Origin: a virus
DNA length: 64,000 bases
Direction: 5' to 3' (one strand)
Virus record (IMG/VR): IMGVR_UViG_3300009155_000038
Positions 9,401 through 63,999 of the stretch are shown one piece after another. The notes beneath the pieces are model-generated. The model did no database searches, had not been told where the DNA came from, and was given only the letters and a program-made list of their open reading frames with translations. The translations under genes were made by a program, and so were the position numbers. The first letter of the stretch is position 1, and each line of letters begins with the position of its first letter.

Positions 9401-12026
9401 GACGAATAGTCGGACATGGCGGCTTTGGAATCGGCACAACAATGTCGAGTACAACGTCGAAAGCGCATTGACCGGGATCGTTGCAGTCGACAGGCGGAGT
9501 GTGATCTGGTTTGATTTCAAGTTTGTTACGCTTGCCGGCTACACACGTGCTACCTGCGTAGCCGCTTGAGACGTTAAACTCTTTGACGCGAATGTCGGGA
9601 CAGGGTGTACGCGGGATCGGTATTGCTACCTCTAAGGCAACATCAAATTCGCATTGTCCGGGATCATTGCAGTCGACGGGCAAAGTGTGCTTTGGCTCAA
9701 TACTGAATAGGTTCTTCGCGTTATTGAAACAAGTGTCGTCTGCGAAACCTGTTGTGACGACAAAATTTTTCGTGTTGATTAATGGGCAGGGTGTGCGCGG
9801 AATTGGCACAAGCACAGCCACGTCGAAGTCGTACTGACACGTACTTGGGGTATCACAGTCGCCGGGGATAGTCGTCGGCGTGATATCAAAACGATTGTAT
9901 TTATCATTGAGGCACGTTTCGTCGACAGGGTCGTTTGCAAAACTTGTCGTGACCTCAAACGATCTTGTGTTAATGATCGGGCACGGCGGCACCGGGATCG
10001 GAATGCTCAAGACCATAGCGACGTCAAAATTACACTCGCCCGGGTCATTGCAATCAACCGGGGCTACTGGCGCTGCTGTAATTGTGAACGTGCTCGTATC
10101 GCATTGCACTTCTTCCCAGTACGGCGTGTCATCTGCGATACCATCAGCGAAATTTACAAGCAGTTGCCAGCGCTTTGCTGGATTGAGTGTTTTCACGCGC
10201 ATTCCGACAAACCGCGATATTTGTGGAATTGCGCGCCGCGCTGCTATATCAGCAACTTCTAAATCAAAACGACAACAGTCGGTAGAGGTGATTTCGTCCC
10301 AGAATATTGTGTCGTCAGCTGTGCCGTTAGGAAATTTGCTGCGCAGCCGCCATAACTTTGGCGGCGTAGTCGTTTGTACGATCATACCAACGCTTTGTTG
10401 CGCATTTGAAATCGCAAGCCGATCGGCGATAGCGTTGACTGATATGGTGGGGCTGACGTGGTTGTTTGTGTTATTTGGGTCGAGCAACACCGTTGATACA
10501 TTAAACGCCGAAACGTTTATGGTTGGGCACGGCGGCCGCGGGATCGGGATATCAAGCACCAGATCTACATTAAACTCGCACTGCCCCGGATCATTACAGT
10601 TAGTCGGCGTAGTGTGGTCTGGTGTAATTAAAAAAGTGTTATTTGTCGTGTGGCAAGCGACACCGTCGTATCCTGTATCGTTGTATCCAACGGTGACCGA
10701 AAAATTACGCGCGGTAATAATCGGGCAAGGAGTGCGAGGAATTGGAACGTCAAGTTGTAAATCAAAATTGAACTCGCACTGGCCGGGGTCGTTGCAATTT
10801 GTCGGCAGAACGTGCTTCGTTGTGACTTCAAATTTGGTGTTAGCCGTGTGGCAACTCTGATCGTTATAGCTTTGATCGCTATAGCCCGTGTAGCCGCTTG
10901 TTACGACAAACGGGAAAGTGTTAATGATCGGGCACGGCGGCAATGGGATTGGCACGACAATTGACAAGTCGATATCAAATTCGCACTGATCTGCCGTATT
11001 ACAGTTGCCCGGGATGACTCGCGGCGTAACTTCAAAAAAGTTACTTTTGCTGCTCAAACAATCAAGCGCGCCAGTAAACGCATCACCGGAAAACCCGGAG
11101 TTAACTTCAAACGTTTTACGGTTAATAATTGGACAAGGCGTACGCGGGATCGGGATTGCGATTCCAACCTCTAGATCAAACGAGCAGCTGTCGGGAACGT
11201 TGCAGCCGTCGCTTGAAATAGTCTTTGGCGTGATTAAGAAAAAATTGCTTTTGCCGGCTAAGCACGAGTCGCCCGCGGAGTCAGTATCGAACCCAGTAGC
11301 GACGTCAAATGTTTTGAGGTTGATTTGCGGGCACGGGGGGCGCGGCAGCGGCACGGCAATTTCTACGTCGAGCGCAAATGCGCACTGATCTGCAGTATCA
11401 CAATCGCCTACAACAGTGGCCGGCGTAATTGTGAACGTGTTTCGCTTGCCGACCATGCAGGTATCGTTGTAATACCCAGAGTTCACACTAAACGTATTGA
11501 CATAAATCTGCGGGCATACTGGTTTTGGAATCGGGATACGTAGATCTAGATCTAATACAAACTCGCACTGGTCTGCTGTATTGCAGTCTCCGGGTGTGAG
11601 AATTTTTGTGACAGAAATTGTGTTTGTTGCCGTAATACAATCCTGATATCCAACTTCTAGGTTGAAGTTGCCACCTGTGATTGTTGTGCAGGGCGGCTTC
11701 GGGATTGGAATGGCAAGGTCGAGCGCCAGATCGTATTTACACGGATCGACATCTGTTTTTTCAACGCTGAACTTGATTACTGGCGCGGTGATACAGCCAG
11801 AATCTGTGTCGCCGCCGTAAGCGACGGCAAGAGTCGATACCGTAGAGAACTCTGGGCAGAACGGGCCGACTTCTGTAAACGGCTCACGTGGCACGATCGG
11901 CGCTGTGCAACCATAAATAGGCGGCGGAGCTTTCGGCACTGTGCAGACGTCATTAACAAAATCGAAATCCGCCTTTGGGACGGGCTCAATCGGACACTGC
12001 GAATTTTTAAACAGGTTTTCAGACAT
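6453..12026 (-). CDS. giant tail fibre-like protein: about 14 well-conserved plus about 5 degenerate 4-Cys repeats of 60-70 aa, then a C-terminal collagen domain
   Basis: Repeat consensus CPxINxxxFxVxxG..C...NxFxIxP....DCxxPxxCxFDxxLxIPIPxPP; G-X-Y region at about nt 6690-7890. Confidence 0.85.
7210..7253. repeat. 44-nt exact direct repeat, copy 2
   Basis: Identical to 6081..6124. Confidence 0.9.
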
Positions 12027-20496: not shown

Positions 20497-22224
20497 TTAC
20501 TGGCACGTACCTGATACAAGTCTGGCAGTAGCGCCCATATCGTTTACAAACGATTCGGGCACTGTATCACTTTCTGGCTGCATGCCGGTAAATGTCGTTA
20601 TCGTCTCGGCAACGCGGTTCTCGGGATCTATCGTGTCAGTACCGGCCGACAGCTCAAATACGACGATCATTCCCGTCTGGGGCGGTAATAATCGACGCAG
20701 GTGTCTAACATTGTACAGTCCCAAGCTATTTTGCCCCAATGTCGAAACCAGAATTCTTACGACAAAAACGTTGTTACGTAAGACGTTCTCAACCAGAAAT
20801 TGCAGGGGATTAATAGTCCTAGGCAGGTTTTCCTCTGTTGGCTCGGCTGCGGGGTTGACGCGCTTATCAAGTAATTGAGCCAGTGTGCCGCGGCGGCGCT
20901 TGCCGACGCACGGCTGCGCTGCCGCCTGCGCTGCGGCGATTCCACGCATGTGAATTTCGTCAAAAAACCGCTCGGCATCGGCTGGGAAACCGCCCAGTTT
21001 AAAGCTTAGATATGTGTAGCCGCTGGGGTGGTCTGTTACTACCTTTAGCGGCACCTGTTTGTTTTCAAAAATTAGGTCGCCGTAAAAGCACGCCGACAAA
21101 TAGCCGTCGTCCAGCGCTAGCGCAGTTATGTCACGGCGGGCAGGCTGACACACATATGAATTCGGGTCAATCAGGATGACGTCGTCTGATTCTGTAACTA
21201 ACGGCTCAAACAGGTTATCGACAAGGATGTTATTTGGCGGTGGGCAGCACAATAAGCTGACGTCTTCCGCAAAACTAGTGGCGTAGGTGTTGCCTACGAA
21301 GAATTCTTTGATATCAATACCCCTGATCAACTGCGTGCCGGCTGAAATCACCTGTCCGACACGTACTACCGCTGTTGCGTTGTTGCTGAACCGATAAACA
21401 GTCTTATCGGTAATGACGAGTAAACCGTGCGAGTCGTAATCAACGACTTCGACTGTTTCTGACAGTTCTGTGCTTACGGGCACGCCACAAATAACGGCGA
21501 GCGCCAGATCTAGCGTGGCCGCCGTGGCACCACCCTCGACCAGACTAGTGATTACGGCGTTCGTCAGGTCTTTATAACCCTGACTCGTTCTGAGTTTAAT
21601 GCCGACAGCGTAAGCAAACTGATGGAACACAAAATCGTAGTCAAACTTGCCACAAAATCCCCACAGGGTAAGTTCTTCGTCGTGAACACTGCCAGACACC
21701 ACCGGCCGGCGTAAAAACGCGGGGTTGTCAAACGGGTTTGCTTTAAAAATAATCGACCCGCGTTGCTGGTCAATAACGAAATCAACGTCGCTGAGCAGGG
21801 CAGCTGTTGGAAACGTGATACGGTTAAAAAACTGGCCTACAGCGGCCAACTTTTCAGGTAAAGGAAACGAGAAAAATGACACGTTGGTTGGCGCAGTATC
21901 AAAAACGGGAGGGCCGTTAAATAATTGCGTGCCGTCATCAAACAACGTCGAGGTTGTCTGCACAGAATTCAAATCTGACCGTTTAATAACAACCGGCACA
22001 ATTGTTTCTTCGTGAAACAACGGTACGTCATAGCGACTCAGCGCCGCGACAACTTCAAGCAGATTTCTATAGGTCTGATTGATGGTGTGCGCCGTGCTAA
22101 TTACGTACGACTCAACCTGATCACGACCAGTGAATGTGCGCGCCCAGAAACTACCGAGCAGCCCCAGCAGCGTGCGGCTTTTGTCGAAGTCTGTGCCCGG
22201 ATAGCTAAAAGCTTGTTTTTGCAT
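20497..22224 (-). CDS. putative baseplate wedge protein (gpI/gp7-like position)
   Basis: 575 aa, directly downstream of the baseplate J-like gene; call is mainly positional. Confidence 0.5.
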   Translation of the reverse strand: MQKQAFSYPGTDFDKSRTLLGLLGSFWARTFTGRDQVESYVISTAHTINQTYRNLLEVVAALSRYDVPLFHEETIVPVVIKRSDLNSVQTTSTLFDDGTQLFNGPPVFDTAPTNVSFFSFPLPEKLAAVGQFFNRITFPTAALLSDVDFVIDQQRGSIIFKANPFDNPAFLRRPVVSGSVHDEELTLWGFCGKFDYDFVFHQFAYAVGIKLRTSQGYKDLTNAVITSLVEGGATAATLDLALAVICGVPVSTELSETVEVVDYDSHGLLVITDKTVYRFSNNATAVVRVGQVISAGTQLIRGIDIKEFFVGNTYATSFAEDVSLLCCPPPNNILVDNLFEPLVTESDDVILIDPNSYVCQPARRDITALALDDGYLSACFYGDLIFENKQVPLKVVTDHPSGYTYLSFKLGGFPADAERFFDEIHMRGIAAAQAAAQPCVGKRRRGTLAQLLDKRVNPAAEPTEENLPRTINPLQFLVENVLRNNVFVVRILVSTLGQNSLGLYNVRHLRRLLPPQTGMIVVFELSAGTDTIDPENRVAETITTFTGMQPESDTVPESFVNDMGATARLVSGTCQ

Positions 22225-22231
22225 AAGTCAC

Positions 22232-23881
22232 TCAGCTTAAAAACCCTGCGGCTACAACAGACACAGCGACGTCTTCCGGGCGCGTCAGGAACGCTGTGGT
22301 GCGCCCAGAAACACCGCGAGCGTAGTCGGTTGGGATTACCAGCGTTGCGTTATCGCGTAAATACGTGACGGTACCATCTGGTCGGCGAATCCGGCCAAAC
22401 ATATCAATACTACTGAGCGCTTGGCGCCCCGTGAGATACTTGTGCGCTGCTGTGCTAATAACCGACGCGTTAAGCTGCCCAGAAAAACCGATTTTATTAA
22501 TGGCTTCGCTGACAGCTTGCTGAATTGCGGCAACATCAGGTGTTGCATCAGCTGCCTCTTTACGAATATCAAAAGCGATTTTTGTAAAGCACGGAACGGG
22601 CGCTTTTACAAGCACGTCTGATCCTCGCGCCCTTATGTCACGCGAACTTAAAAAGTCTTGCAGCTCAGCAATCAGCGGCATACCGATTGTGCGCACCGAA
22701 TAGATCTTTTTGTCTTTGTTGGCAACGAGTGTTCCCGGCGGTGTGTCCGTATCTTCGAACTGAATTACGGCTGTCTGATATCGCGTGTACGCGCCTTCTG
22801 GTACATAGAGCAAGTCGGGTACAAAACTCAGGTTTGTCAAATCAACGTTGCGGACATCAAGCGTAATTCCGTAGCCAGTCACATTCTTGCTTGTTGGCTG
22901 AGCAATACGTGTGACCTCATAAAATCCGGGTGCCGTGTTCCGCGATAGGATAATTTGCCACTTTGTGCCGGCCGTTGTTTGTCCCATATACGTCGCAGGT
23001 AACAGTTGCTCTGTTTCTTGCGCGTAGCCGTTTGTCTGCGCGTAGATGTCGACTTTTCCGCCGCCGGAGATTGGAAATAAACCGTGCTGATCCCGCTGCT
23101 GCTCTGGGTCGCCGCAGCCGACGAACGACAAGCTGACCGTATTCGCAAATTCAGGCTGATTTAAGATAGCAGCAGTAAAATTTTGCCTGCCGCCGATTGT
23201 TTTTGCCGACAGCCCCGCGGTCAGCTTAGCCAAGTATTCTTCGTTTGAGCTGGCGTTTTTGCCGTGAATAAAGTCCGCAGTTGCATAAGCCGCGCTGGTG
23301 TTGTTCAGTACGCTATTGGGCTGCAAAGGCGTGCCACGATTAATATTTCCGATAGCGCCAACAGTAGTAGCCTTTAAAACAATTGTCGCGGCGTATGTTC
23401 CGTCGCCTACCGGAATCATAGTGCGCTCATTAGCGGCGGTTGCAACCACATTCGGCGGCAAAATTGTAAATGTTGCCGTCGGTACAAATACGGCGCCTGT
23501 TGTGTCAGCTGTAAATCTCACAGCCTGAGATACAGTCGTGAGTACAGGTAAATTGAACACGAGGGTGGCTGTACCGGTCGCCGGGGTGCCCGCGTCACGA
23601 GTTACGTTGAAATTAGAGAGCACCTGATCTACTAGATCGGTGTCGGCAAGCGTCGGATCTTTTGTGATCTGCAGCAGGCTTTTACTGCGCAGTACCCGGT
23701 CGATATTTTCTTGAATCGCCGCGTTGAGCACGCCGTCAAAATACAGCACAAGATCGTGAAACACGCCGCGCGTCAGCTCGACTTCTGGGTGCCGTTCCGC
23801 CATAAGTTGCGACATTGTCGCAATCATGCTTTCGACTTTGGCCGTGTCTAGTTGTGTAAGGCTTGTGATCTGTAATGACAT
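22232..23881 (-). CDS. baseplate J-like (gpJ/gp6) wedge protein
   Basis: Pattern TRDAGTPATGTATLVF...ATTVGAIGNI...ADFIHGKNASSNEEYLAKL is typical of Baseplate_J proteins; follows a gp25-like gene. Confidence 0.75.
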   Translation of the reverse strand: MSLQITSLTQLDTAKVESMIATMSQLMAERHPEVELTRGVFHDLVLYFDGVLNAAIQENIDRVLRSKSLLQITKDPTLADTDLVDQVLSNFNVTRDAGTPATGTATLVFNLPVLTTVSQAVRFTADTTGAVFVPTATFTILPPNVVATAANERTMIPVGDGTYAATIVLKATTVGAIGNINRGTPLQPNSVLNNTSAAYATADFIHGKNASSNEEYLAKLTAGLSAKTIGGRQNFTAAILNQPEFANTVSLSFVGCGDPEQQRDQHGLFPISGGGKVDIYAQTNGYAQETEQLLPATYMGQTTAGTKWQIILSRNTAPGFYEVTRIAQPTSKNVTGYGITLDVRNVDLTNLSFVPDLLYVPEGAYTRYQTAVIQFEDTDTPPGTLVANKDKKIYSVRTIGMPLIAELQDFLSSRDIRARGSDVLVKAPVPCFTKIAFDIRKEAADATPDVAAIQQAVSEAINKIGFSGQLNASVISTAAHKYLTGRQALSSIDMFGRIRRPDGTVTYLRDNATLVIPTDYARGVSGRTTAFLTRPEDVAVSVVAAGFLS

Positions 23882-24901: not shown

Positions 24902-25717
24902 TTAAAACCCGCCGTGAGTGTATTGTTTGTCGAGCATGCTTTGAATCTTTGCTGCGCGCTGACTAACCGCGCCCGGCGTGATGTTAAGACGATGTGCAAT
25001 ATCTTGCGTGCTGGCTTTGCGTCGACCGTTACGCCCTAGTGTCATATCGGCAATGAGCTTGTCTGTTGGGCTCAGATCGTCATATACAAAGTTAAACCAA
25101 GCGTCGGCAGCCCGTGTTGATCCCGGCACTACGCTTGCCACATCGCCACCGTAGTTTTCTTCTGAGGTTACGTCGCGTGTAGTTGTGCCCTCAGATACAG
25201 GCTGATTAAACGCACGAATCTTTTGAATGCGCCGTTTGGATAGACTTGTTGAATCCGCCAGCTCATCGTCTGTCGGGTCGCGGCCAAGTTCGTCGCGCAT
25301 TTGGTTTTCGTGTTCGTTTAGGCGCGAAAAATCCAGCCCGACCTGCTCTGGAATGGAAATGATATTTTGAGACTGCGCTGACAGTCGGCGTATGCCCTGC
25401 AGCTGCGACAGTAGGTGTGTCCGCACATTGCCGCGGTTGGCGTCATAGCTGTCCAGCGCCTTGAGGGCCATCATTCTGGCTTTTGACTTAATGGTCGGAT
25501 GCGCGTTCTGTCCGGCGTAACTTGTGACAGCCGTGTCGATAACCGGCTGAATCGTCTTCAAAATAGCTGTATTGCTTTCAGGCGTACGGTCGTTTTGCCA
25601 CTGGGTGTAGGCAGTATCAAAAGCGTCGGCAACGCCCGCCGGCTTTTTCTCTGAGAACGGCCCCGGAATGTCGCCAAGAATAGACGGCATGCCAGCAGGT
25701 TTTTTGTTGTTGGTCAT
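24902..25717 (-). CDS. sigma70-family RNA polymerase sigma factor (regions 2, 3 and 4)
   Basis: ALKALDSYDANRG (region 2.2/2.3), ELGRDPTDDELAD (region 3.0/3.1) and LSPTDKLIADMTLG...STQDIAHRLNITPGAVSQ (region 4 HTH). Confidence 0.85.
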   Translation of the reverse strand: MTNNKKPAGMPSILGDIPGPFSEKKPAGVADAFDTAYTQWQNDRTPESNTAILKTIQPVIDTAVTSYAGQNAHPTIKSKARMMALKALDSYDANRGNVRTHLLSQLQGIRRLSAQSQNIISIPEQVGLDFSRLNEHENQMRDELGRDPTDDELADSTSLSKRRIQKIRAFNQPVSEGTTTRDVTSEENYGGDVASVVPGSTRAADAWFNFVYDDLSPTDKLIADMTLGRNGRRKASTQDIAHRLNITPGAVSQRAAKIQSMLDKQYTHGGF

Positions 25718-45069: not shown

Positions 45070-46041
45070 TTACTTGAAGTCAACGCGAGCCAGACCGTTC
45101 GTGTGACCGAACGAGCCGCCTTGCGTGTTGTAGGCGAAATACTCAAGCATGTAAGCTTCACGACGGATGTACATCGTGGTGGGCTCAAGCTCGTAGTTCT
45201 TGCCAATGAACTTGGGGCTGGCAAACATAAACAAGCTATCATCGGGGATAAGACCCGTATTAGCTGGCTGCGTGGTGTCGCTGATACCTTCCGCGGCCCG
45301 ACGCTTGATCGTGACGATCCAGCGGCAGTTGAGGAAGTTAGTCTCAGCCCAGCCGTTCTTGATGATGTCCTGCGAGAAGTCACCGCCCATTTCGTCGCGA
45401 CCGAACTTGAGGATTTCCTTGATCGTGATGTTATTCACGAGGCAAGTTTCAACCTCAAAGTGCGAAGGCGTACGGGGCATGACCTTCAGGGCGTCAACAA
45501 GCGTCTCACGCGTGATGCCACCGCTGATCTCTTCATACTGCACCGAACCGGAAGCAACGTTCGCCACGCCCGGGGTCGGGAGGACGGCGTTGAAAGCGGC
45601 GATGAACTTCGAGTCTTCCTCGGCGAGCATGTCCTTGATCATGTTGTCGCTGAGAACCTGACGAATGTCGATGACATACGTACGCAGTTCGTCGACGTCC
45701 TTCACAGCGCGGGGCGACACGATCCGGTCAAACATGACGCGGTAGCGCGGGCCACGGATGTAGAAGTTGATCGGGAGTGTCGCAAACGGGAGCGACACAG
45801 CCGCCGGGGAATCGGGCTCCTTGTCCACAACCTTGACGGGCTTGTCAGTGTCAACCTGACGGTCCAGCTCGTCGTTGGTGATGGTCAGCGGGGGCATAAT
45901 CCGACGATAGAAACCGTCTTCACGCATCTTGGTGCGCGTGAAATCGTTAACCGCGTCGATGGCCTGCTTCTGCATGCCGGGGGTATCGAGCTGCTCAAAC
46001 AGTGTCTCGTTGAGCAGTTGTACTTCTTGCTGTGTGGGCAT
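45070..46041 (-). CDS. major capsid protein (HK97-fold-like)
   Basis: 323 aa, strongest codon bias in the window, downstream of protease, scaffold and decoration genes; true start ATG 46041 with GGAGG SD. Confidence 0.8.
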   Translation of the reverse strand: MPTQQEVQLLNETLFEQLDTPGMQKQAIDAVNDFTRTKMREDGFYRRIMPPLTITNDELDRQVDTDKPVKVVDKEPDSPAAVSLPFATLPINFYIRGPRYRVMFDRIVSPRAVKDVDELRTYVIDIRQVLSDNMIKDMLAEEDSKFIAAFNAVLPTPGVANVASGSVQYEEISGGITRETLVDALKVMPRTPSHFEVETCLVNNITIKEILKFGRDEMGGDFSQDIIKNGWAETNFLNCRWIVTIKRRAAEGISDTTQPANTGLIPDDSLFMFASPKFIGKNYELEPTTMYIRREAYMLEYFAYNTQGGSFGHTNGLARVDFK

Positions 46042-46045
46042 TGTT

Positions 46046-46061
46046 GGAACCTCCATGTTCC
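46046..46061 (-). promoter_or_regulatory. CsrA-type hairpin GGAAC-AUGGAG-GUUCC over the major capsid RBS
   Basis: ACAUGGAGGU matches the (A/U)CANGGANG(U/A) consensus; 5-bp stem with hexaloop. Confidence 0.75.
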
Positions 46062-54498: not shown

Positions 54499-56886
54499 TT
54501 AGGAGTTTGCAACAGCGCCAAGATCAACGTCCGCACCAGACTCTTCAGGATACGGCTCAATAGTCTTCTGCTTGAGGAACAGAATCACGTCGCCGAGCAT
54601 CTCAAAGGCGTTGCGCAGCGAATCTTCCAGCTCCGGCATATCAGCCTTGCCGTACCGCTCAGCGAACCGGTCGCCGTGCCAGTAGAACATGAACAGAATG
54701 CGGCCCAACTTATCGAGTCCCTTGGTCAGGTCGCCCATGTAGCGGTCAACGAGCCCGTCGTCACGCACAGCGCGCAGCATGCTGCCGATCATCGCCGTGT
54801 CGAACACTTCCTTCTGGCCCGACTGCGCAGCGTCGATAACAGACCGAACGTCTTTGTTATCAAACATCGGGTTCGGGTTATAGATCTGGCGATCTGTCTG
54901 GCTGGCGCTCATGCCAGTTACCGGCACGCCAACGTCGATACCCAGCTGCGTCGGAACGCTGGAACCCATGATTGTCTCGCCGCCCATAACCGGACCCGGA
55001 TCACTCGGGGCGTTAGGAGCGCTATTAATCATCATCGGGCCGCCGTACGGGTCGGCATACTTGATACGCCCTTCGTACTTGCGCTTGGCCGATGCAGTCT
55101 TGAGGATCTCGCGGGCCTCGGCTTCGCGTAGACCGTGATGCTCAACGAGCGTGACCAGCGCCTTAATCGGGCTGACGGCAGCTTCTTTGTTAATGCTGAC
55201 TTCCGTGCCGCTGTGATACACAGTCAGGCTGGCTGTCTTCTGCATGATGGCCATCTGTGCGTCGGCGATATTGCCGGGCATCAGCGGCGGATCTTCGCTA
55301 CCGCCGCAGCCGCAGTTTGGCTTATCTTCCGACAGCTCGCTGGCCGGCACGTCGTCTTCGCCAAGCTTGCACTTGAGAAGCTTGTAACCCTCTGGCACAA
55401 AGATGTCGCCCATGCTCGCGCGGAGCTTGGAGCCCTTGCTGGTGCCAAGATGGACGCGCACGCCGTCACGATACTTGCTGTAGTTCAGCGGATCGTTGTA
55501 GCAGCAGTCGCCGATATGGCCCTTGGGCGGGTGCTTCGAGTGGTCTTCAAGATCGACTTCGTAAGATTTCACGCCGAATTCGCTCTCGCCGTACTCACGA
55601 ATCATGCGAACCGGCACCGTAGCGTCGCCGTTCTTGTTGATCAGCATGTACCGGGAACTGTTGCTCGGTAGGCTGCTTGCTTCCGGCAGACCGTCAAACC
55701 ACTTGGTGAACTCTTCGTCTTCGATCTTGAACAGCGCAAACACTTGGTCAGCGCGGGTGTTGACCCAATCAGGGCTGCCTTCGGTGCGCACCACGGTGAC
55801 AAAGTCAGCGCGCTTGGCAGCAGCTTGCGGAAACACGGCCACGTAGCAGCGCTCAATGTTGCCGCCCTTGACCAGAATCTCGTACAGGCCGCTTTCGCTG
55901 GGCGTAAACAGCTTTTGCTCAAATTGAATGTTGTACGGCACCGAGACGTTATCATCGCCGCGCTCATCCTTGATCAGCACGCCGTCACGAAGCAACTTCT
56001 CTTGGTCTTCTTCGCTGTAACCGGCCGGGAGCTTTGTCTGCACCGTAGTGTCATACGAAATAACTTTCAGGCCAGACTGCGCTTTCGGCTTCTCGGGCGC
56101 CTCGGACAGCACACTGGCAATCTTGGTCTGATTCTCGCGCGTCTTGGCGATGGCAATAGCTTCTTTAATGATATCTAAGCCGTGGAACTCCTCGATGGCG
56201 CTGGCAATCTGCGGGGCGTGCTGGCATGTCTTAACCAGCATTTCCAGCGTTGTCAGGCGGGCTTCCTTGAGGAATGTTGCCAAATTCAGCGTCTTGCCCA
56301 TATCAGCAAAAGCCGACACGGTGTTCATCGTGGCGGCCTTAGCAAACGCCGGCATGGCCTCGTCGACCATTTCCTTGAGCGTGGGCTTGGCCGACCCGAA
56401 CTTAGCCGGACTGCGCGACAGCTGTGTAAAGTCAGGCTGGCGCTGGCCGAACTGAGACAGATTCTTGTCAATGCCGCTGCCCATGATGTTGGGCTTTCGG
56501 TTAACGAGATAGTTAATCCAGTTTTCCTTGAGCGGCACAAAGATATCTTGGTTCTTGATGTACAGCAGCTCGTGGCCCTTCAAGTCGCCGTTCAGGAAGA
56601 ACACCGGCGCGTACAGCCACAGCGAACCGACCTTGAACGCGAACACGGCTACTGCCTTGGTGTTTTCGCGATTCCGGTCGAGAAGCTGGAAACCGATTTC
56701 GTGATCCAGCAGCTTCGGAGCCGAGTCGCGCAGATAGGCGTGAGCCAGATTGCTAAACGACTGCTCAAACGAGGTGTCGTCGCCCTTACCGCCAAGGTCA
56801 GCCTGCTTTGTCTGGCTCCGATCATGTGACCGGACGACAGTCAGCCAATGCTTATACGACGATTCTTTGGTCTTTTTGTTGTACAC
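54499..56886 (-). CDS. large putative virion (internal head) protein
   Basis: About 795 aa, high-GC3 codons, K-x-A motifs; GTG start 5 nt after GGAGG. Confidence 0.65.
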   Translation of the reverse strand: MYNKKTKESSYKHWLTVVRSHDRSQTKQADLGGKGDDTSFEQSFSNLAHAYLRDSAPKLLDHEIGFQLLDRNRENTKAVAVFAFKVGSLWLYAPVFFLNGDLKGHELLYIKNQDIFVPLKENWINYLVNRKPNIMGSGIDKNLSQFGQRQPDFTQLSRSPAKFGSAKPTLKEMVDEAMPAFAKAATMNTVSAFADMGKTLNLATFLKEARLTTLEMLVKTCQHAPQIASAIEEFHGLDIIKEAIAIAKTRENQTKIASVLSEAPEKPKAQSGLKVISYDTTVQTKLPAGYSEEDQEKLLRDGVLIKDERGDDNVSVPYNIQFEQKLFTPSESGLYEILVKGGNIERCYVAVFPQAAAKRADFVTVVRTEGSPDWVNTRADQVFALFKIEDEEFTKWFDGLPEASSLPSNSSRYMLINKNGDATVPVRMIREYGESEFGVKSYEVDLEDHSKHPPKGHIGDCCYNDPLNYSKYRDGVRVHLGTSKGSKLRASMGDIFVPEGYKLLKCKLGEDDVPASELSEDKPNCGCGGSEDPPLMPGNIADAQMAIMQKTASLTVYHSGTEVSINKEAAVSPIKALVTLVEHHGLREAEAREILKTASAKRKYEGRIKYADPYGGPMMINSAPNAPSDPGPVMGGETIMGSSVPTQLGIDVGVPVTGMSASQTDRQIYNPNPMFDNKDVRSVIDAAQSGQKEVFDTAMIGSMLRAVRDDGLVDRYMGDLTKGLDKLGRILFMFYWHGDRFAERYGKADMPELEDSLRNAFEMLGDVILFLKQKTIEPYPEESGADVDLGAVANS

Positions 56887-56887
56887 G

Positions 56888-56903
56888 GCCACCTCCATGC
56901 GGC
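56888..56903 (-). promoter_or_regulatory. CsrA-type hairpin GCCGC-AUGGAG-GUGGC over the RBS of 54499..56886
   Basis: CAUGGAGG core; 5-bp stem including one G-U pair. Confidence 0.7.
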
Positions 56904-56969: not shown

Positions 56970-58844
56970 TTAAGGCTTCCACCCACTCGTCGTGCCCGTT
57001 ACGCCGAACTGCTCTCCGCGAGCCAATGCCGGCACGTAACTGCTGCTCGCTGTGTCCGAGCTTAAGCCACGGTGCACGCTATTCATCAGGCCTTTTTCTT
57101 GATACGACCCCAGCATACGGGTCATCCAATCAGTGTCGTTAGAGATGTTCGACATACCGCGCACCATCTCCGGCTCAAACGGCGGCGGCTCTTTGTGCGC
57201 TTGAATATTGTGAACGCCGTACTTATTTAGATTAGCTGCGACGTTTTTGCCAATTTTTGTGCCGATAGAATAATGCAAGACGGGCTGTTCTAAGTAGTGC
57301 CCGACCATAGCCTGCGGCGCGCCAGATACTGCGCCCGCGCGCGGCTGCCAGTTTCGTTCCAGCGCAGAATATGGCACGATATCGTCTGGCACGTAATCGC
57401 CGTGCTCGTCGGTCAGCCGCACATGGTTAATGAGCCCACGCGCGAGCAGCTCTACATTACGACGGTGCGACGAAATACCGCTGTTTTTCATGACCTGCTG
57501 CATCGCCTGCACGAAATAGCGCCGGCCTTCGCCGATACCTTTGTGCTTCACGACTTCAGCCGGACTGGGCATGCCGCTCGAAATAACATCGCCGGCTTCT
57601 AGTTCGTCGCCCTTTTTAACGCTAACTTCTCGGTCAGCCGAGACGTAATGGTCTTGGCCGTTGACCTGTACGTAAAACCCGCCTTGCGGCGCCGGCCTTA
57701 CTTCTTGCACACGGCCGTCGACTTGCGTGTGCGTCGCACCATTTGGGTATTTCTTCGGTACCTGAACCAGAGCGTTGAGCGCTTTGAACCCCGAAATAGC
57801 TCCTGCGCCACCCACACCGCCAGAGTGCTTCGAGCTAATCTGGCTTTGCGTTACCGGCTCAGAAAGCGCCTGCGCAGCGGCAATACCGACATAGTCACCA
57901 ATCGGCGGTAATCGATGCTTTTCCCGATATCCCACGTCCTTGGCAAAAACACCGCCATCTGCCGGGCCGCCCACTAATGGGCTGCGGACTAAGATATCTT
58001 TAACCCCCATCTGTTTCATATCTCGCAGGATTTTGGGGGTTAGCAGTGTGTCGCGCTTGTACGGCCCCACAGGTCGCGACAAAAACGCGCCCTCGTTATC
58101 TACGTCGTCTACATCGGTCGGCATCCCGCGGTCGTGAGCTGTGGCATTGCGCTCTGCATCATCCTCATCGTCTTGAGTCACAAGAAGCCGATGCGTCATT
58201 TGCGTTAGCTGCTTGCCGAAAAATCCAGCGTCAGCCGTAGCGGTCTTTAAATCCATAACGCCCTTGCGGGTGCCGAATGCGCCGGCAAAATACTCTACCG
58301 GGCGCAAACCTTGTCCGTAGCCATGCGTTACCGGAATTGGAATCGGCTCGCCGCGGTGATCGAGATACTGCATATCAGCGCCGATAAGGCTATTCAGCGA
58401 GAATTTATTACCTCTGCCCACGCCATGCACTTGTTGGGCAAGCGGGTTATCCTCCCCGTGCGACTCGGCAAATACTTTCTCCACAAGATCGCGCTGCGCG
58501 TTTGACGCCAGTTCCAACAGGCGCAGATCTCGCTCTTTGTCGTCGATACCGCGGTCGGCAAATAGTTTCTGCAGATCGCCGTGCATCTTGAGCTGGGCGT
58601 TGCGTACGGCCAGTGTCGGCTTAATGTGCTTTAGCCCGAACGACAGACCATTTGTTGTGTAACTGGCGTCCTTGCCGATGTCATGCAGCTTTTTCATAAC
58701 CGGCCGGTACTGATCCGGGTACTTCTCGGCTAGCTGCGTCGCAAGTTCTGCCATCTTTTTCTTGGTCAGAACCCGCTCGTGGTCGCGCATGTCGGGCGGC
58801 AAGGCCTCGTTAATCAGAACTTGTCCGAGCGTTGTTTTGAGCAT
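56970..58844 (-). CDS. phage multisubunit RNA polymerase, beta' C-terminal portion
   Basis: TTLGQVLIN, bridge helix YFAGAFGTRKGVMDLKTATADAGFFGKQL, trigger loop GIAAAQALSEPVTQSQISSKHSGG, and RRNVELLARG; start ATG 58844 coupled to the upstream TAA. Confidence 0.92.
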   Translation of the reverse strand: MLKTTLGQVLINEALPPDMRDHERVLTKKKMAELATQLAEKYPDQYRPVMKKLHDIGKDASYTTNGLSFGLKHIKPTLAVRNAQLKMHGDLQKLFADRGIDDKERDLRLLELASNAQRDLVEKVFAESHGEDNPLAQQVHGVGRGNKFSLNSLIGADMQYLDHRGEPIPIPVTHGYGQGLRPVEYFAGAFGTRKGVMDLKTATADAGFFGKQLTQMTHRLLVTQDDEDDAERNATAHDRGMPTDVDDVDNEGAFLSRPVGPYKRDTLLTPKILRDMKQMGVKDILVRSPLVGGPADGGVFAKDVGYREKHRLPPIGDYVGIAAAQALSEPVTQSQISSKHSGGVGGAGAISGFKALNALVQVPKKYPNGATHTQVDGRVQEVRPAPQGGFYVQVNGQDHYVSADREVSVKKGDELEAGDVISSGMPSPAEVVKHKGIGEGRRYFVQAMQQVMKNSGISSHRRNVELLARGLINHVRLTDEHGDYVPDDIVPYSALERNWQPRAGAVSGAPQAMVGHYLEQPVLHYSIGTKIGKNVAANLNKYGVHNIQAHKEPPPFEPEMVRGMSNISNDTDWMTRMLGSYQEKGLMNSVHRGLSSDTASSSYVPALARGEQFGVTGTTSGWKP

Positions 58845-58845
58845 A

Positions 58846-59085
58846 TTACGGCGCCCAGACAATGTTTTCGATCGGCTTTGGTTTAAATTCTGAAACTGCG
58901 ACTGTCTTATTAATGCCTAACGCCTGCAAAATTGAGTGAAAGTCTTTTTCGCCGGGCGTTGAATACACAATCGCCTCATCAAGCTGAAGCGCTACAAAAA
59001 TAGGGTTGCCCAGATCGTCTTCAACAACGATGCTGTGCGCTTTTTGTTCTGTAGGCTGCAGCTTGTACTGCGTCTTAATGTGCAT
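58846..59085 (-). CDS. small hypothetical protein between the RNAP fragments
   Basis: 79 aa (MHIKTQ...), ATG overlaps the upstream ORF end. Confidence 0.65.
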   Translation of the reverse strand: MHIKTQYKLQPTEQKAHSIVVEDDLGNPIFVALQLDEAIVYSTPGEKDFHSILQALGINKTVAVSEFKPKPIENIVWAP

Positions 59086-59800
59086 TCCCGGACAAGCTCC
59101 GCAACATGGCCGCAGCGGCACTCGCCTTGGTTTGCAGATCAACCGCCGGCGACTCCACAGTGCTGGTTACACTGCGATCAACCGGGTGCCCGATGTAAGA
59201 CGCTGACTTGTTGTATTCATTAGCCAGATCCCACCAGCTAGCTACCTTACCCGCATTGGGGTCTTGCGGCGGGGCGCTGGGATCCATGGGACCGCCCGGA
59301 GGCAGCGGACCACCCGGAGCTTGCGGGCCTTGCGGCGCGCTGGGGTCTTGCTGCGGGGGTGGCGGCGCCATCGGACCACCGGGAAGTGCCGACTCAGCCG
59401 GCGGTGCGCCCGGCGAACCCGGAGGCAGAACCAGCGATTCTGGCGGAACTTGCACGCCCAGCGCGTTCATAATCGCCGTTAACTGCTGCTGCATGTTGTA
59501 CAGCCGGTAATCCAACATGTTCATCATCTGCTCAGGCTTGAGCTTCTGTACGGCAGCGGCGCCGGGAGCAGCACCGGGCGCCGCGGGAGCAGCTGGAGCC
59601 GCGGGTGCAACAGGGGCTGCGGGAGCAACAGCACCCATAGCTGCCGGGTCAACAGGCGGAGCGGCGGCAGCCGGATCGGCGGGAGGAGCCGCGCCCATTG
59701 CTGCGGGGTCCACGGGGGCGGCTGCGGGCGGCGGGAAATCAGCCTCTTTTACGAGGCGCGCTGCCGCTAAGGCAATAAGTTCTGGGTTAACTGTGTACAT
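59075..59800 (-). CDS. Pro/Ala-rich low-complexity protein between the RNAP fragments
   Basis: 241 aa, AAGGAGG SD, PAAAP/DPAA repeats bounded by VKEA, GKVA and NKSA. Confidence 0.75.
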   Translation of the reverse strand: MYTVNPELIALAAARLVKEADFPPPAAAPVDPAAMGAAPPADPAAAAPPVDPAAMGAVAPAAPVAPAAPAAPAAPGAAPGAAAVQKLKPEQMMNMLDYRLYNMQQQLTAIMNALGVQVPPESLVLPPGSPGAPPAESALPGGPMAPPPPQQDPSAPQGPQAPGGPLPPGGPMDPSAPPQDPNAGKVASWWDLANEYNKSASYIGHPVDRSVTSTVESPAVDLQTKASAAAAMLRSLSGNAH

Positions 59801-59823: not shown

Positions 59824-62800
59824 TTACGTATTATCTTCCACAATATGCACTGGGGTGTCTACATCTATTTCCCCACGCCGGTATGCGCTAATAGCATCTT
59901 GCTTGTTGCGAAACACACGGGGCTTAGCTTTATTGTTGATCCGGCTGGACGCCAGATACATGCCGGTCTGGTAATCCGCCTGCGGCACATAATGAGCTTT
60001 AAACGACGCCGCGGCAAATAAATTTTTACTCGGCAGCATCTTGGCCACAGCTTCAGCCGCCGCATCGTCGGTGCTCGGGACGTGGTACTGCATCGCATCG
60101 CCGTCAAAGTCCGCGTTAAAACCCTTGGTAATCACAGGGTTTACTTCCATGACCTTGTTCTTCGTTAATTTGGGATAGAACGCCATCATGCCGTAGCGAT
60201 GCAGTACGGGCGCACGATTAATAACAATCGGGCGCTTGCTCATTTGAGTCTGCAGCTCGTCCATCGCGGCTTTGTTCTTATCTTCGACAAACTGGAGCGC
60301 CTGCATTCTGGGCAATCCGCGGCGAACAAGCCCGCGCACGACGAACGGCTTGTAAACATCCCACGCTTTTTCTTCGGGCAGCGCGACTTCGTCCATGTCT
60401 AAGTCTGGGTTCGGCGTAATCACAGCGCGGCCCACAAGATCGACCGTAGAACTCAGCAACTTGCGCTGAACCGTGCCGTACTTGGGGGAATTACCAAAGA
60501 TGTGCGACAAGAAGCCGCGAACATTGCGCTCGACGTTCTTGGGGTGCTGCGGATCACCCAAACCAGTTACGCCCTTCATAGCGTCGTACACATTCAAGCG
60601 CTCGTCGCCGTACTCTGTGACTTGCTGCGCTGCGTCTTTCAATGCGCCGTTCGCGTCGAGTAACTCTTTGTAGAGATAATTCGCGTCAGCCACGAGCGGG
60701 AGCTTCTTCGCGCCCATTGTCGATACGGGGCGGAATAGCGGCGGAATGACTGGTATCTTGGTCAGCATCCAGTCTTTGGGATGCACGCCAATACGCTCAG
60801 CGCTCTTTAAATATCCCAGCTTACGCACAGCGGCATCGCGCTGAACGGCACGGCCCGATTTGATGTCTTCGCGCGCCTGCTCAATAGCTTTGGGAAGATT
60901 GATCTTCGCCAGCGCGTCTGAAATAGCTTGCGGGCCAGTAGCGTCGTACAGCTTTTCTTGGCCAGCAAGAACACCGCGAAACTGTTTCTCTGTCAGCCCC
61001 AAAACCCGACGAATAGGATCTTCCATGATCGGGTTAGGCATCGGCTCGTGTAATGTTATCTTTGACCAGCGATTGCCGCCGTGGCCACCCGTAAGCGTCT
61101 CGTCAAAAAGGCCGCCGGCGACTGGCTTCATCCGGCCTTTCCAATCCACCGTTTCGGCATTCTGGATCTCGCGGTTACCGGCTAGCTGATCGACGTCTTT
61201 GTCGTGCAGGGCCATGATATTCGTCTTCGTACCAGTGCGCGTGACGTTAATCCCAGAGCCCTTGAGCTGGTTGACGAACTTTTCATAAACGTGCGGGATC
61301 TTGGGCAGCGGGGCGTCATAACCGGCCATGAACTGCGACCAATACTCTGGGTTCGCTTGACCGCGCACCATTTTGGCGTCGCGAATGACTTTGCCGGCGC
61401 CGTGAGACAACAGCGCGCCCAGATCAAGCATGCCCACGCGCTTCGCGCCTTCTGAACCGCCCTTGGCCGGCGTGCCTTCCGCTGTGTAACCGCCGGTAGA
61501 GCGCCCCTGCCCTTTGGACTCAGCTGTGTGGTGCAGCTTCATAAAGAATCTATTACCAGTGAGCACGTTGCCAATCTTGCGGCCAGTCTCAGGGTCAAAT
61601 AAATCCTCGGTGTCATTCAGCCCGTGCTTGGCGAGTTCTTTCTGCGCAAACTCGACCATATCTGTGTCGTTATCGAAATCTTTAACCTTGTACGGCTGGC
61701 CAGTTTTGGCGGCTACTTTGCCTAGTGCGGTTTCGATAACTTGAGACGGATTCACGCGCGAGATCAGGCCCAGCGGACTGACCAGCACTTCCATGGGGTT
61801 GCCGTCTTTGTCGTGCGGCATCTGATGATCTGGGACAATATCAGAAATTACACCCTTGTCGCCAAATCGACCTGTGAGCTTGTCGCCAACTTCCATCGGT
61901 GCTTGATTCTTGACGACAACGCTGACGCCCTTGGATGTGTGCTCAACGTCGGTCACAATACCGGGCGCATGATGATCCCATGTCACTGTTTCGTTGGTAA
62001 AGCTGCCGGCACGACCACGATGCACTTTGCCGTACACCGTGTCTTTTTTCTTAGCCACGAGCACAAGCGGGTCACCGAAGTTGACGGTCATGCCCTTCTT
62101 GATCGCGCCTTGGTCATCAAAGTTATCTAAAAGCTTCTTCTCGTACTGGCCGGGAAACAAACTCACGAATGCGCGCTTGCCGACGTGCGTGTTGTCGTCC
62201 CACTCGGCTTCATGCTGATACATGTGCTCAGACGTTAAACGCTTGGCCGCAGACTCGGAGATCACCGTAGCGTCTTCGTAGTTCTTGCCCCTGAATGGCA
62301 GATAACCCACGCGCATATTTAAACCTAGCGCGGCCGAGCCATTGCTGTCTGTAAAATTAGAGCGCGCCAGCAGTTGCCCGGGCTTAATGACATCGCCCGG
62401 CTGTACCATTGGCGTCTGATGTAAAAACGTCTTCCGGTTGTACGGCATGTCGTTGTACAGTTCGACGGTTTTCTTGTTGCCGTCGCGATCACGTACCACA
62501 ATACCGTCTGGCGACACGGAAACTACTTGGCCGTGAATATCAGACCGCGTAGCGCCAAGCCGCTCACCCATTTCGTCTTCATGTGATGTGCCCGGTTTAT
62601 CGGCCACGGCAGACTGCACAAACGGCGCTTCGGCACCAACGAGCGGTAACGCCTGCGTAAACATGCGCGAACCCATGATGACGCGATGGCCCTTCATCAT
62701 GAACTTGAGCGGCACCATGTTAGACAGCGACGAGAACGCCGAGTCCATATGCGGCAAGCTGTACTGCACTTCTTTGCGCGGCACATACTTAATCTTGCCG

Positions 62801-63999
62801 CCAACAAGCGCGGCGACTACTGGCAGCTTGTTGTTTTCTTCGCCCGGAAAGGCCAACGGTGTATCAGCTAGTTCTTGCGGTGTCTTATGCGTTGTTTCTC
62901 CGGTCTTCATGTCGATAACCGGCGTATAAATTCTGCCGTCAGCGCCCTTCATTGCGCCACGGGCAAACCGCATGTCCACGCCGACTTTGCCAGATTCGGG
63001 AGTGCGCAGGTAGTCGATGTAACCTAGATGGCTGGGTTGTACGCTGCGCGACTCAGCCGGCACGGCGTCGAGCGATGAAATACCGCCTTCGCCCATGCGC
63101 GTCACGCGGGTCTGATGGTCAAAAATTTCAGCCGGGTTGATTTCTTCCAAGCTTGAACCAAGACCAGAACCAATGAGCGCGCTCGAAATAGCCTTGTCAA
63201 ATACGCCGCTCGGGATGTGGTCGATGGATTTCTTTGCAGTGGCGCGCCAGAGAAGCTTGTTCAAACCTTGCCTATCTTTGCCAAACCGTTCTGCAATAAG
63301 ATCTTCCGGCCCCGCAATTGACTGGAACACCATGTTGTCTCGGTCGTCCGGGTCAGCTTCGCGACGATTTACAGCCAAGAGTTTCTTGGTGATCGCCAGC
63401 ATCGTTTCAGCATTGATATTTTTATGCCCGGCACCCAGAGTGCGATGCGTGACTTCAGGATCTAACTCAACCTTGGCAAACGCTTCTTGAATAGCCTGTT
63501 GTTTTGCAATGTTGTCGGCGTTCAGGTCAATCTTGTTAGCTATTCTTTGATACAGCTTATCCAGTGTGCCGGCGTCGCCCTTCGCCATGTTTACGGCGGT
63601 GATGTCGTTGCCCCAATGTTCGCGGAGCTGTTGGTCCGTGACGCCCATGCTCTTGAGCACCGGCATCAGCGGAATCTGTGCCTGCCCGATATTGATCTTG
63701 AACACGCCGGTCTTGGGGTCGAGAAAATACCGGTGCGAGCGGCCCTTGCCGGGAAGCGTATTCACGTGCGCTTCGATTTCGCCGTTGTCTTTCTCGCGAG
63801 TAAACACGCCCGGCCGCAAACGCATTTGGTGGGCGAGCGTGTATTCAACGCCTTTGTTTACAAACGTGCCGGAGTCGGTGAGATACGGCACATGCGCAAT
63901 CGTCGCATTCTTCTGCCCGACAACTTGGCCGGTTTTGTTATCTACCAATGACCATGTGCCCTGCAACTTACGCGAGAGCGAGCCGCGGGTGAGAACAGC
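59824..63999 (-). CDS. phage multisubunit RNA polymerase, beta + beta' N-terminal fusion with catalytic NADFDGD (5'-truncated by the window edge)
   Basis: beta motifs SVQPSHLG..RTPESGKVG, MGSRMFTQA, NYEDATVISES, GDKLTGRFGDKGV, FMKLHH, GGSEGAKRVGMLD; beta' motifs GGLFDE, WMLTKIPVIPPLFRP, VDLVGRAVITP, NRAPVLHR, NADFDGD (nt 60097-60117). The frame stays open to the window end. Confidence 0.95.
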   Translation of the reverse strand, partial: AVLTRGSLSRKLQGTWSLVDNKTGQVVGQKNATIAHVPYLTDSGTFVNKGVEYTLAHQMRLRPGVFTREKDNGEIEAHVNTLPGKGRSHRYFLDPKTGVFKINIGQAQIPLMPVLKSMGVTDQQLREHWGNDITAVNMAKGDAGTLDKLYQRIANKIDLNADNIAKQQAIQEAFAKVELDPEVTHRTLGAGHKNINAETMLAITKKLLAVNRREADPDDRDNMVFQSIAGPEDLIAERFGKDRQGLNKLLWRATAKKSIDHIPSGVFDKAISSALIGSGLGSSLEEINPAEIFDHQTRVTRMGEGGISSLDAVPAESRSVQPSHLGYIDYLRTPESGKVGVDMRFARGAMKGADGRIYTPVIDMKTGETTHKTPQELADTPLAFPGEENNKLPVVAALVGGKIKYVPRKEVQYSLPHMDSAFSSLSNMVPLKFMMKGHRVIMGSRMFTQALPLVGAEAPFVQSAVADKPGTSHEDEMGERLGATRSDIHGQVVSVSPDGIVVRDRDGNKKTVELYNDMPYNRKTFLHQTPMVQPGDVIKPGQLLARSNFTDSNGSAALGLNMRVGYLPFRGKNYEDATVISESAAKRLTSEHMYQHEAEWDDNTHVGKRAFVSLFPGQYEKKLLDNFDDQGAIKKGMTVNFGDPLVLVAKKKDTVYGKVHRGRAGSFTNETVTWDHHAPGIVTDVEHTSKGVSVVVKNQAPMEVGDKLTGRFGDKGVISDIVPDHQMPHDKDGNPMEVLVSPLGLISRVNPSQVIETALGKVAAKTGQPYKVKDFDNDTDMVEFAQKELAKHGLNDTEDLFDPETGRKIGNVLTGNRFFMKLHHTAESKGQGRSTGGYTAEGTPAKGGSEGAKRVGMLDLGALLSHGAGKVIRDAKMVRGQANPEYWSQFMAGYDAPLPKIPHVYEKFVNQLKGSGINVTRTGTKTNIMALHDKDVDQLAGNREIQNAETVDWKGRMKPVAGGLFDETLTGGHGGNRWSKITLHEPMPNPIMEDPIRRVLGLTEKQFRGVLAGQEKLYDATGPQAISDALAKINLPKAIEQAREDIKSGRAVQRDAAVRKLGYLKSAERIGVHPKDWMLTKIPVIPPLFRPVSTMGAKKLPLVADANYLYKELLDANGALKDAAQQVTEYGDERLNVYDAMKGVTGLGDPQHPKNVERNVRGFLSHIFGNSPKYGTVQRKLLSSTVDLVGRAVITPNPDLDMDEVALPEEKAWDVYKPFVVRGLVRRGLPRMQALQFVEDKNKAAMDELQTQMSKRPIVINRAPVLHRYGMMAFYPKLTKNKVMEVNPVITKGFNADFDGDAMQYHVPSTDDAAAEAVAKMLPSKNLFAAASFKAHYVPQADYQTGMYLASSRINNKAKPRVFRNKQDAISAYRRGEIDVDTPVHIVEDNT

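Follow-up and report, generated by a model that had tools for sequence, protein, structure and literature searches.

The question raised by positions 59824-63999 of a 64,000-nucleotide stretch of viral DNA (IMG/VR virus record IMGVR_UViG_3300009155_000038; the whole stretch is referred to as the window) is whether a single minus-strand phage gene joins the beta subunit of a cellular-type RNA polymerase to the catalytic N-terminal part of beta' (beta'N), leaving the rest of beta' (beta'C) to a separate gene, and what kind of enzyme such chains would form. This layout had been proposed in a sequence-only reading of the window, and the analysis described here found it to be real, conserved and abundant in metagenomes. 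Taken as a whole, the locus quite likely specifies the two-chain, sigma-dependent polymerase of an uncultured tailed phage of ~200 kb, probably packaged in the virion.

The fusion gene (59824..63999, minus strand) is a single stop-free frame of 1391 codons, with its stop codon at 59824-59826 and its 5' end open at the window edge. Judged from a full-length homologue of 1467 amino acids (aa) in L007, ~76 N-terminal codons lie outside the window, and the full protein in relatives measures ~1465-1467 aa. Pfam places Rpb2_3 at residues 284-341 of this frame, Rpb2_6 (PF00562, E 5.5e-52), the beta-type double-psi barrel with the flap, at residues 490-839, Rpb1_1 at residues 1071-1126, and Rpb1_2 (PF00623, E 8.7e-26), the beta'-type barrel with the metal-binding DFDGD loop, at residues 1249-1319. 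Both double-psi barrels and the NADFDGD catalytic loop (60097..60117, minus strand; residues 1295-1301) are therefore carried by one polypeptide, as had been proposed, and PHROGs likewise describes the frame as one phage beta family followed by the first half of one phage beta' family. The loop is not invariant across the clade: most lake relatives read GADFDGD where the window has NADFDGD, and the sequence is AADYDGD in both Salmonella phage Arash and Vibrio phage D69.

The beta portion (61237..63999, minus strand; residues 1-921 of the window frame) represents a whole beta subunit in compact form, residues 13-941 being collinear with residues 83-1075 of the 1100-residue cyanobacterial beta in a comparison with solved structures. 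The beta'N portion (59827..61227, minus strand; residues 925-1391) begins at beta' residue ~12, extends to the equivalent of E. coli residue ~568 and covers the region of the clamp helices together with the catalytic barrel, that is, the N-terminal ~40% of beta'; it aligns to B. subtilis beta' 142-539 (E 6.8e-52) and was also aligned to Salmonella RpoC. In a Foldseek search with a model of the junction, beta chains were matched at E 1e-33, and ordinary beta chains were the only architecture returned.

The two portions meet almost without a linker. The joint (61210..61251, minus strand) comprises strand INVTRT, the last of beta, then a turn of two residues and strand KTNIMA, the first of beta', and the junction was located at nucleotides ~61225-61240, inside the interval of about 61220-61250 expected from the sequence-only reading, whose quoted strings could all be found in the frame (YEKFVNQLKGSGINVTR at residue 905, TKTNIMAL at 924, KPVAGGLFDE at 958 and NADFDGD at 1295). 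Fusion residue 919 pairs with residue 1337 of the 1342 residues of E. coli/Salmonella beta, and fusion residues ~922-971 align to beta' residues ~12-65, so that beta lacks about 5 residues at its C-terminal end and beta' about 11 at its N-terminal end, and the linker amounts to 0-5 residues. On the beta' side, …ETVDW…KP.AGGLF… stands opposite …ETINY…KPERDGLF… in three different beta' references, and this stretch is collinear with the significant beta' match further along the chain. An AlphaFold2 model of residues 480-1391, built from a 47-sequence alignment with a mean predicted local distance difference test score (pLDDT) of 82.9, pairs strands 917-922 and 925-930 as a beta-hairpin at pLDDT 70-90. 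As aligned and modelled, the joint is fairly described as seamless.

The missing part of beta' is encoded about 1 kb downstream of the fusion gene. This beta'C gene (56970..58844, minus strand) gives a product of 624 aa from the ATG at 58844, with the bridge helix, the trigger loop and the C-terminal modules, and carries Pfam Rpb1_5 (PF04998, E 6.9e-24), which confirms that beta-beta'N and beta'C are two genes; PHROGs assigns the gene (as 56970-58862) to the second half of the same phage beta' family. Alignment of its N-terminus with Arash gp216 and with the L007 homologue makes the ATG at 58844, the start assumed in the sequence-only reading, most likely, and disfavours the upstream TTG at 58862. 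The product corresponds to the remaining ~60% of beta' and can be aligned with residues 658-1171 of Streptomyces beta' and residues 575-1083 of that of C. thermocellum.

The position of the cut between the two beta' pieces can be fixed closely. The fusion chain ends about 90 residues past NADFDGD, its last residues aligning with Salmonella RpoC ~554-568, and the first residues of beta'C (MLKTTLGQ…) stand opposite RpoC 569-576. Numbered as in C. thermocellum, the first piece stops at ~567 and the second starts at ~570, and no beta' sequence is lost between them. The cut lies opposite residue ~558-563 of the 625-residue cyanobacterial gamma subunit (equivalent to E. coli residue ~568) and precedes the rpoC1/rpoC2 boundary by ~60 residues. 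Since published reviews have the phiKZ-type beta' split coincide with the cyanobacterial one (PMC7598289), the alignments make the cut in the fused phages look like an independent event, the phiKZ-type position being taken here from those reviews.

The sequence-only reading had allowed for a sequencing or assembly error at the junction, and the conservation of the same continuous frame excludes this. With residues 840-1110 as query, 857 protein clusters (at 90% identity) were matched; the best 120 of them, at 79-94% identity, extend over the full junction without exception and have both Pfam domains, and most are 1446-1488 aa long, with several lying on contigs of ~200 kb. In an exhaustive profile-free search at least 150 representatives at the 50% identity level matched residues 600-1391, and 29 of the 34 IMG/VR loci that carry the gene match the frame without interruption. 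The junction is spanned in one alignment (residues 870-1020) by 265 of 270 homologues at 45-94% identity, 179 of them gap-free over that region; the other five have an insertion at about residue 975-991, which in the one inspected is an intein-like LAGLIDADG element. None of the 270 homologues contains beta'C within the same chain, and no unfused, free-standing beta'N of the fused clade was found, the short matches being contig-end fragments or pieces of genes interrupted by intein-like elements.

Among 50,697 GenBank phage records the junction occurs only in Salmonella phage Arash and in Vibrio phages D69, D148 and D181. These proteins are ~33% identical to that of the window, with the joint and the cut identical in position; the joint itself was compared in four aligned sequences (window, L007, Arash and D69). 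In a tree built from the beta'N region, a branch with a Shimodaira-Hasegawa-like approximate likelihood ratio (SH-aLRT) of 99 has all 14 fused sequences on the same side, with Arash and D69 as the deepest split among them, which points to a single origin of the fused sequences sampled. They are separate from the unfused phage beta' of Va2, 1.031.O and Carin-5 and from the free-standing beta'N of ~110-kb phages, and group weakly with bacterial beta' in this small tree, whose 21 sequences include only 2 bacterial ones, a sampling too thin for further claims on origin. The free-standing beta'N-like proteins in question belong to E. coli phage EP_H11 (111 kb; 522 aa, L045:3431-4999) and Acinetobacter phage Ab1-TPeters (110 kb; 438 aa, L046:3410-4726); both stop somewhat before the cut seen in the window, and they group outside the fused clade.

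A distant relative shows the gene broken at another place. In L041:3941-10761, on a 235-kb contig, the fusion gene is interrupted inside beta at window residue ~852-856, leaving pieces of 1048 aa and 586 aa with a 637-aa gene of no family between them; the beta-beta' joint is intact in the second (586-aa) piece. The first piece carries ~94 extra C-terminal residues and the second ~41 extra N-terminal residues, ends that resemble split-intein halves by their position and by inspection of the sequence, with no family match. If these halves splice, the chain would be restored, which suggests that the single chain is the functional form. The beta'C of L041 is 1343 aa long, with about 720 extra C-terminal residues.

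Intein-like insertions are common in the gene elsewhere. Many homologues (such as P0020, P0125, P0128, P0139, P0158 and P0165) reach 1800-3350 aa because they carry between one and five insertions, or more, each at a conserved site; these sites follow window residues ~335, 523, 708, 748, 827, 975, 1169 and 1301. Most insertions begin with Cys and end with HN, GN or SN before a Ser or Thr, as inteins do; LAGLIDADG domains were detected in three of the four insertion-bearing homologues scanned, two of which also contain an intein splicing domain. The fusion gene of the window has no insertion.

The subunits expected to accompany beta and beta' appear to be missing. Genome-wide statements were made on four complete relatives of ~204 kb (CheckV 100%, two with terminal repeats) together with Arash. 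Each of these genomes has one Rpb2_6 match, and hence one polymerase set, and no match at E<=1 to the alpha families (PF01000 and PF01193) or to the omega family (PF01192) was obtained in any of them, with 14 of 14 control genomes giving a match for each family. As far as Pfam profiles reach, the lack of alpha and omega that the sequence-only reading had noted for the window thus extends to these five genomes.

The two chains of the window also contain no cysteine in 2015 residues, so both beta' zinc sites are gone. The first zinc ribbon of beta' (RpoC C70, C72, C85 and C88) is replaced by a loop ~32 residues shorter, the lost N-terminal site being represented at 61060..61098 (minus strand) by the short cysteine-free stretch …TGGHGGNRW…, and the second site (RpoC C814, C888, C895 and C898) falls in cysteine-free sequence as well. 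The same is true of most of the clade: cysteine is absent from 99 of the 102 close homologues and, among distant homologues free of inteins, from 15 of 20. The Arash chains contain 1 and 4 cysteines, and in the intein-bearing homologues that were aligned the inserted elements carry cysteines.

A sigma-70-family factor is encoded in the same window (24902..25717, minus strand; 271 aa), within the baseplate/tail block. It matches Pfam Sigma70_r3 (E 5.5e-9) and is homologous to, and syntenic with, Arash gp10; a Sigma70_r3 protein is present in five of five records, namely the four complete relatives and Arash. When its AlphaFold2 model (38 homologues, pLDDT 72.8) is compared with the sigma A, B and S chains of holoenzyme structures, the alignments extend over 225-260 columns, and the protein is on that basis a three-domain sigma-70-family factor. 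It is presumed to be the initiation factor of the fused polymerase.

Taken together, these features suggest how the system may work. The fusion chain and beta'C would form the whole catalytic core, with the covalent beta-beta' tether taking over the job of the alpha dimer, that of bringing beta and beta' together; there is good reason to expect that the two chains do suffice and that the tether plays this role. With a comparable degree of confidence, the phage's own sigma-70-type factor would recognise promoters for the fused core. The polymerase and its sigma would be produced alongside the structural proteins, loaded into the capsid and brought into the host with the DNA, so that early genes could be transcribed without the host enzyme, a proposal that is modestly favoured on balance. 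Packaging is supported by the position of the polymerase genes, which lie within the structural block on the same strand as the capsid, tail and baseplate genes, and by the proteome of Arash particles, in which gp206, the counterpart of the fusion chain, ranked first by number of spectra (3516), with 100% coverage, and which also contained gp216 and the sigma factor gp10 (PMC10585845).

Several points weigh against this account. The Arash proteome was a shotgun digest that returned 116 'particle' proteins, ribonucleotide reductases, a kinase and RNA ligases among them, and its authors allow for the carry-over of abundant infection-phase proteins (PMC10585845); packaging is for that reason suggested, not shown. 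The genome-wide absences come from relatives ~83-85% identical to the window and not from the window's own genome, and a very divergent or unrelated scaffold, for instance a 79-aa protein encoded immediately upstream of beta'C, would escape the Pfam alpha and omega profiles. Host alpha could be recruited by the phage chains, and the sigma factor might bind the host core, its pairing with the phage core being predicted. The account of enzyme activity as a whole is a prediction from sequence and models.

One alternative accepts the architecture and gives up the packaging: the enzyme would be made during infection for middle or late transcription, and the host polymerase would read the early genes. 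The clearly non-structural enzymes in the Arash particle list and the carry-over raised by its authors speak for this, as does the dependence on host core of many phages that have sigma factors of their own (PMC7824862). Against it, the polymerase genes stand in the structural block and not among early or replication genes, which is a poor fit for an enzyme needed before the late genes, the fused polymerase is the only set present, and gp206 yielded more spectra than any other Arash protein; this alternative is accordingly regarded as unlikely. It is also improbable that the phage chains fall short of self-sufficiency and that a hybrid enzyme is assembled on the host alpha dimer, perhaps with host omega. 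Bacterial cores are generally known to require alpha for assembly, and the phage subunits are nearer to bacterial beta and beta' than those of the phiKZ type are (25-30% identity, collinear, with the weak grouping in the tree). However, the phiKZ and AR9 polymerases function without alpha or omega (PMC7598289), a covalent tether would remove the main need for a scaffold, and the isolation hosts and sources are diverse (Salmonella, Vibrio, freshwater metagenomes), which would confront the chains with many different host alphas to fit.

The preferred reading, of a self-sufficient and packaged two-chain core, also takes the single chain as the mature form. It is conceivable that the fusion is instead a precursor cleaved at or near the joint during head maturation, so that mature beta and beta'N are separate; a prohead protease often processes the internal head proteins of large phages, as is generally known from phiKZ-like ones, and the size of the mature protein is predicted from the gene. 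Yet the joint is a short, conserved and confidently modelled hairpin and not an exposed linker, Arash gp206 was recovered with complete peptide coverage, and the break in L041 falls inside beta, where an apparent means of re-joining has been kept, which leaves cleavage very improbable. A trivial origin of the fusion, whether as a sequencing or assembly artefact or as a pseudogene that has lost the stop codon between two genes, has a negligible probability: nothing was found in its favour, and the continuous frame recurs in four genomes of isolates and in independently made assemblies, from several sources, that number in the hundreds.

With the architecture in hand, its closest known counterparts are Arash gp206 (1525 aa) and gp216 (606 aa) and the proteins of Vibrio phages D69, D148 and D181, which match the window in the beta::beta'N joint, in where beta' is split and in gene order. 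Arash further shares the sigma factor in the tail/baseplate block and a collinear structural module, and differs from the window by its identity of only ~33%, by nine genes between the polymerase halves as opposed to two, by its AADYDGD loop and by its 1 + 4 cysteines as against none. The Arash paper labels gp206 'subunit beta' and leaves the fusion unmentioned (PMC10585845).

Among cellular enzymes, full rpoB-rpoC fusions are described for Helicobacteraceae and Wolbachia (Zakharova 1999 and Lane & Darst 2010, as cited in PMC7483510). There, as in the window, the C-terminus of beta is joined to the N-terminus of beta', but in those chains beta' is complete, and they operate with alpha and omega and with the zinc sites in place, whereas the window chain is cut ~90 residues after NADFDGD. 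In cyanobacteria and plastids, beta' is divided after the catalytic double-psi barrel into the rpoC1 product gamma and the rpoC2 product, which is similar to the window, while the cyanobacterial enzyme, unlike that of the window, has a separate beta and retains alpha, omega and the zinc sites. That the E. coli polymerase tolerates introduced subunit splits is reported by Severinov 1996, as cited in PMC7483510.

Among phage enzymes, those of the phiKZ/AR9 type are phage-encoded, lack alpha and omega, have beta' split after the barrel and place one set in virions (PMC7598289, PMC7824862). They consist of 4-5 pieces, with beta also split (2-3 pieces), occur as two paralogous sets and have no sigma-70-family factor, in contrast to the window type with its two chains, undivided beta, single set and sigma-70-family factor. 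The mReC phages resemble the window type in that they are tailed phages from the environment whose beta and beta' are bacterial-like and branch separately from the cellular clades; their beta (~1150 aa) and beta' (~1415 aa) are separate, often distant genes, and no fusion is mentioned (Weinheimer & Aylward 2020). Unlike in the window, the subunits are entire and not fused in cultured phages such as Cobetia phage Carin-5 and Vibrio phage Va2. The 'moraphage' lineage (PMC12619734) was considered as a relative and rejected, being without polymerase genes.

The sequence-only reading had called the architecture unusual, which holds for the literature and not for nature: no paper recognising or characterising the beta::beta'N plus beta'C layout was found, reviews up to 2026 included, so that it is undescribed as far as the searches reach, whereas the number of clusters and representatives matched and the four cultured phages make the layout itself common. 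The layout is not categorically new, since fusion, splitting and alpha-less phage enzymes are each known; what sets it apart is their combination in an enzyme that retains a sigma factor and has a cultured representative, which makes it well suited to experiment.

Fusions and splits of subunits inform reasoning on how the polymerase assembles and evolved, and the present layout combines a fusion with a new cut site in an enzyme that additionally lacks alpha, omega and both zinc sites yet has kept a sigma factor. If the two chains and the sigma factor prove active by themselves, they would offer a compact, cysteine-free polymerase of bacterial type for structural work and for orthogonal transcription, and a covalent tether would have been shown able to stand in for the alpha scaffold. 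The clade abounds in metagenomes, where its protein clusters number in the hundreds on contigs of about 200 kb, and because it has a cultured member growing on a laboratory strain of Salmonella (Arash) the layout is open to direct testing. A bolder version of the account, advanced here tentatively and rated less likely than not, holds that this is the smallest known self-sufficient sigma-dependent RNA polymerase of cellular type, made of ~1467 + 624 aa and one sigma factor, free of alpha, omega, zinc and cysteine, with the joint replacing the alpha scaffold; the complete machine would travel inside the capsid and enter by way of the tail, and the 79-aa protein would be a possible new accessory subunit, maybe translationally coupled to beta'C.

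As for the wider neighbourhood, nearly all genes of the window lie on the minus strand, and several are homologous to Arash proteins in the same order, so that the structural module is collinear. They include the major capsid protein (45070-46056, matching Arash gp226), two baseplate proteins (22232-23881, with Baseplate_J, matching gp13; and 20497-22224, matching gp14) and homologues of Arash gp222, gp233 and gp236; a tail-fibre protein is encoded at 6453-12026. No counterpart of the Arash portal, gp205, gp207, gp213 or helicase gp217 could be detected in the window, L007, L013 or L041, and Pfam and PHROGs returned nothing for most of the genes neighbouring the polymerase.

Two genes separate the polymerase halves in the window. 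The first (59075..59800, minus strand) comes next after the fusion gene, is preceded by a strong AGGAGG ribosome-binding site and encodes a Pro/Ala-rich, low-complexity protein of 241 aa of no known family, which is kept at the same position in L007. The second (58846..59085, minus strand) encodes the conserved 79-aa protein, for which no Pfam family, solved-structure profile or Atlas match was found; its ATG overlaps the end of the 241-aa gene, its TAA abuts the ATG of beta'C (TAATATG), and it stands directly upstream of beta'C in 31 of 31 related loci, so that by position alone it could be a small accessory subunit. Beta'C is followed by a gene for a 799-aa protein (54499-56898, minus strand) without a Pfam or PHROG family. 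A homologue of this protein is likewise found downstream of beta'C in the distant L041, where it is a separate gene, and the idea that the 1343-aa beta'C of L041 is a fusion with it was rejected for that reason; Arash has the helicase gp217 at this place. The number of genes between the polymerase halves varies, with two in the window, two others in D69, four in L041 and nine in Arash, while the order and orientation of the halves themselves are constant.

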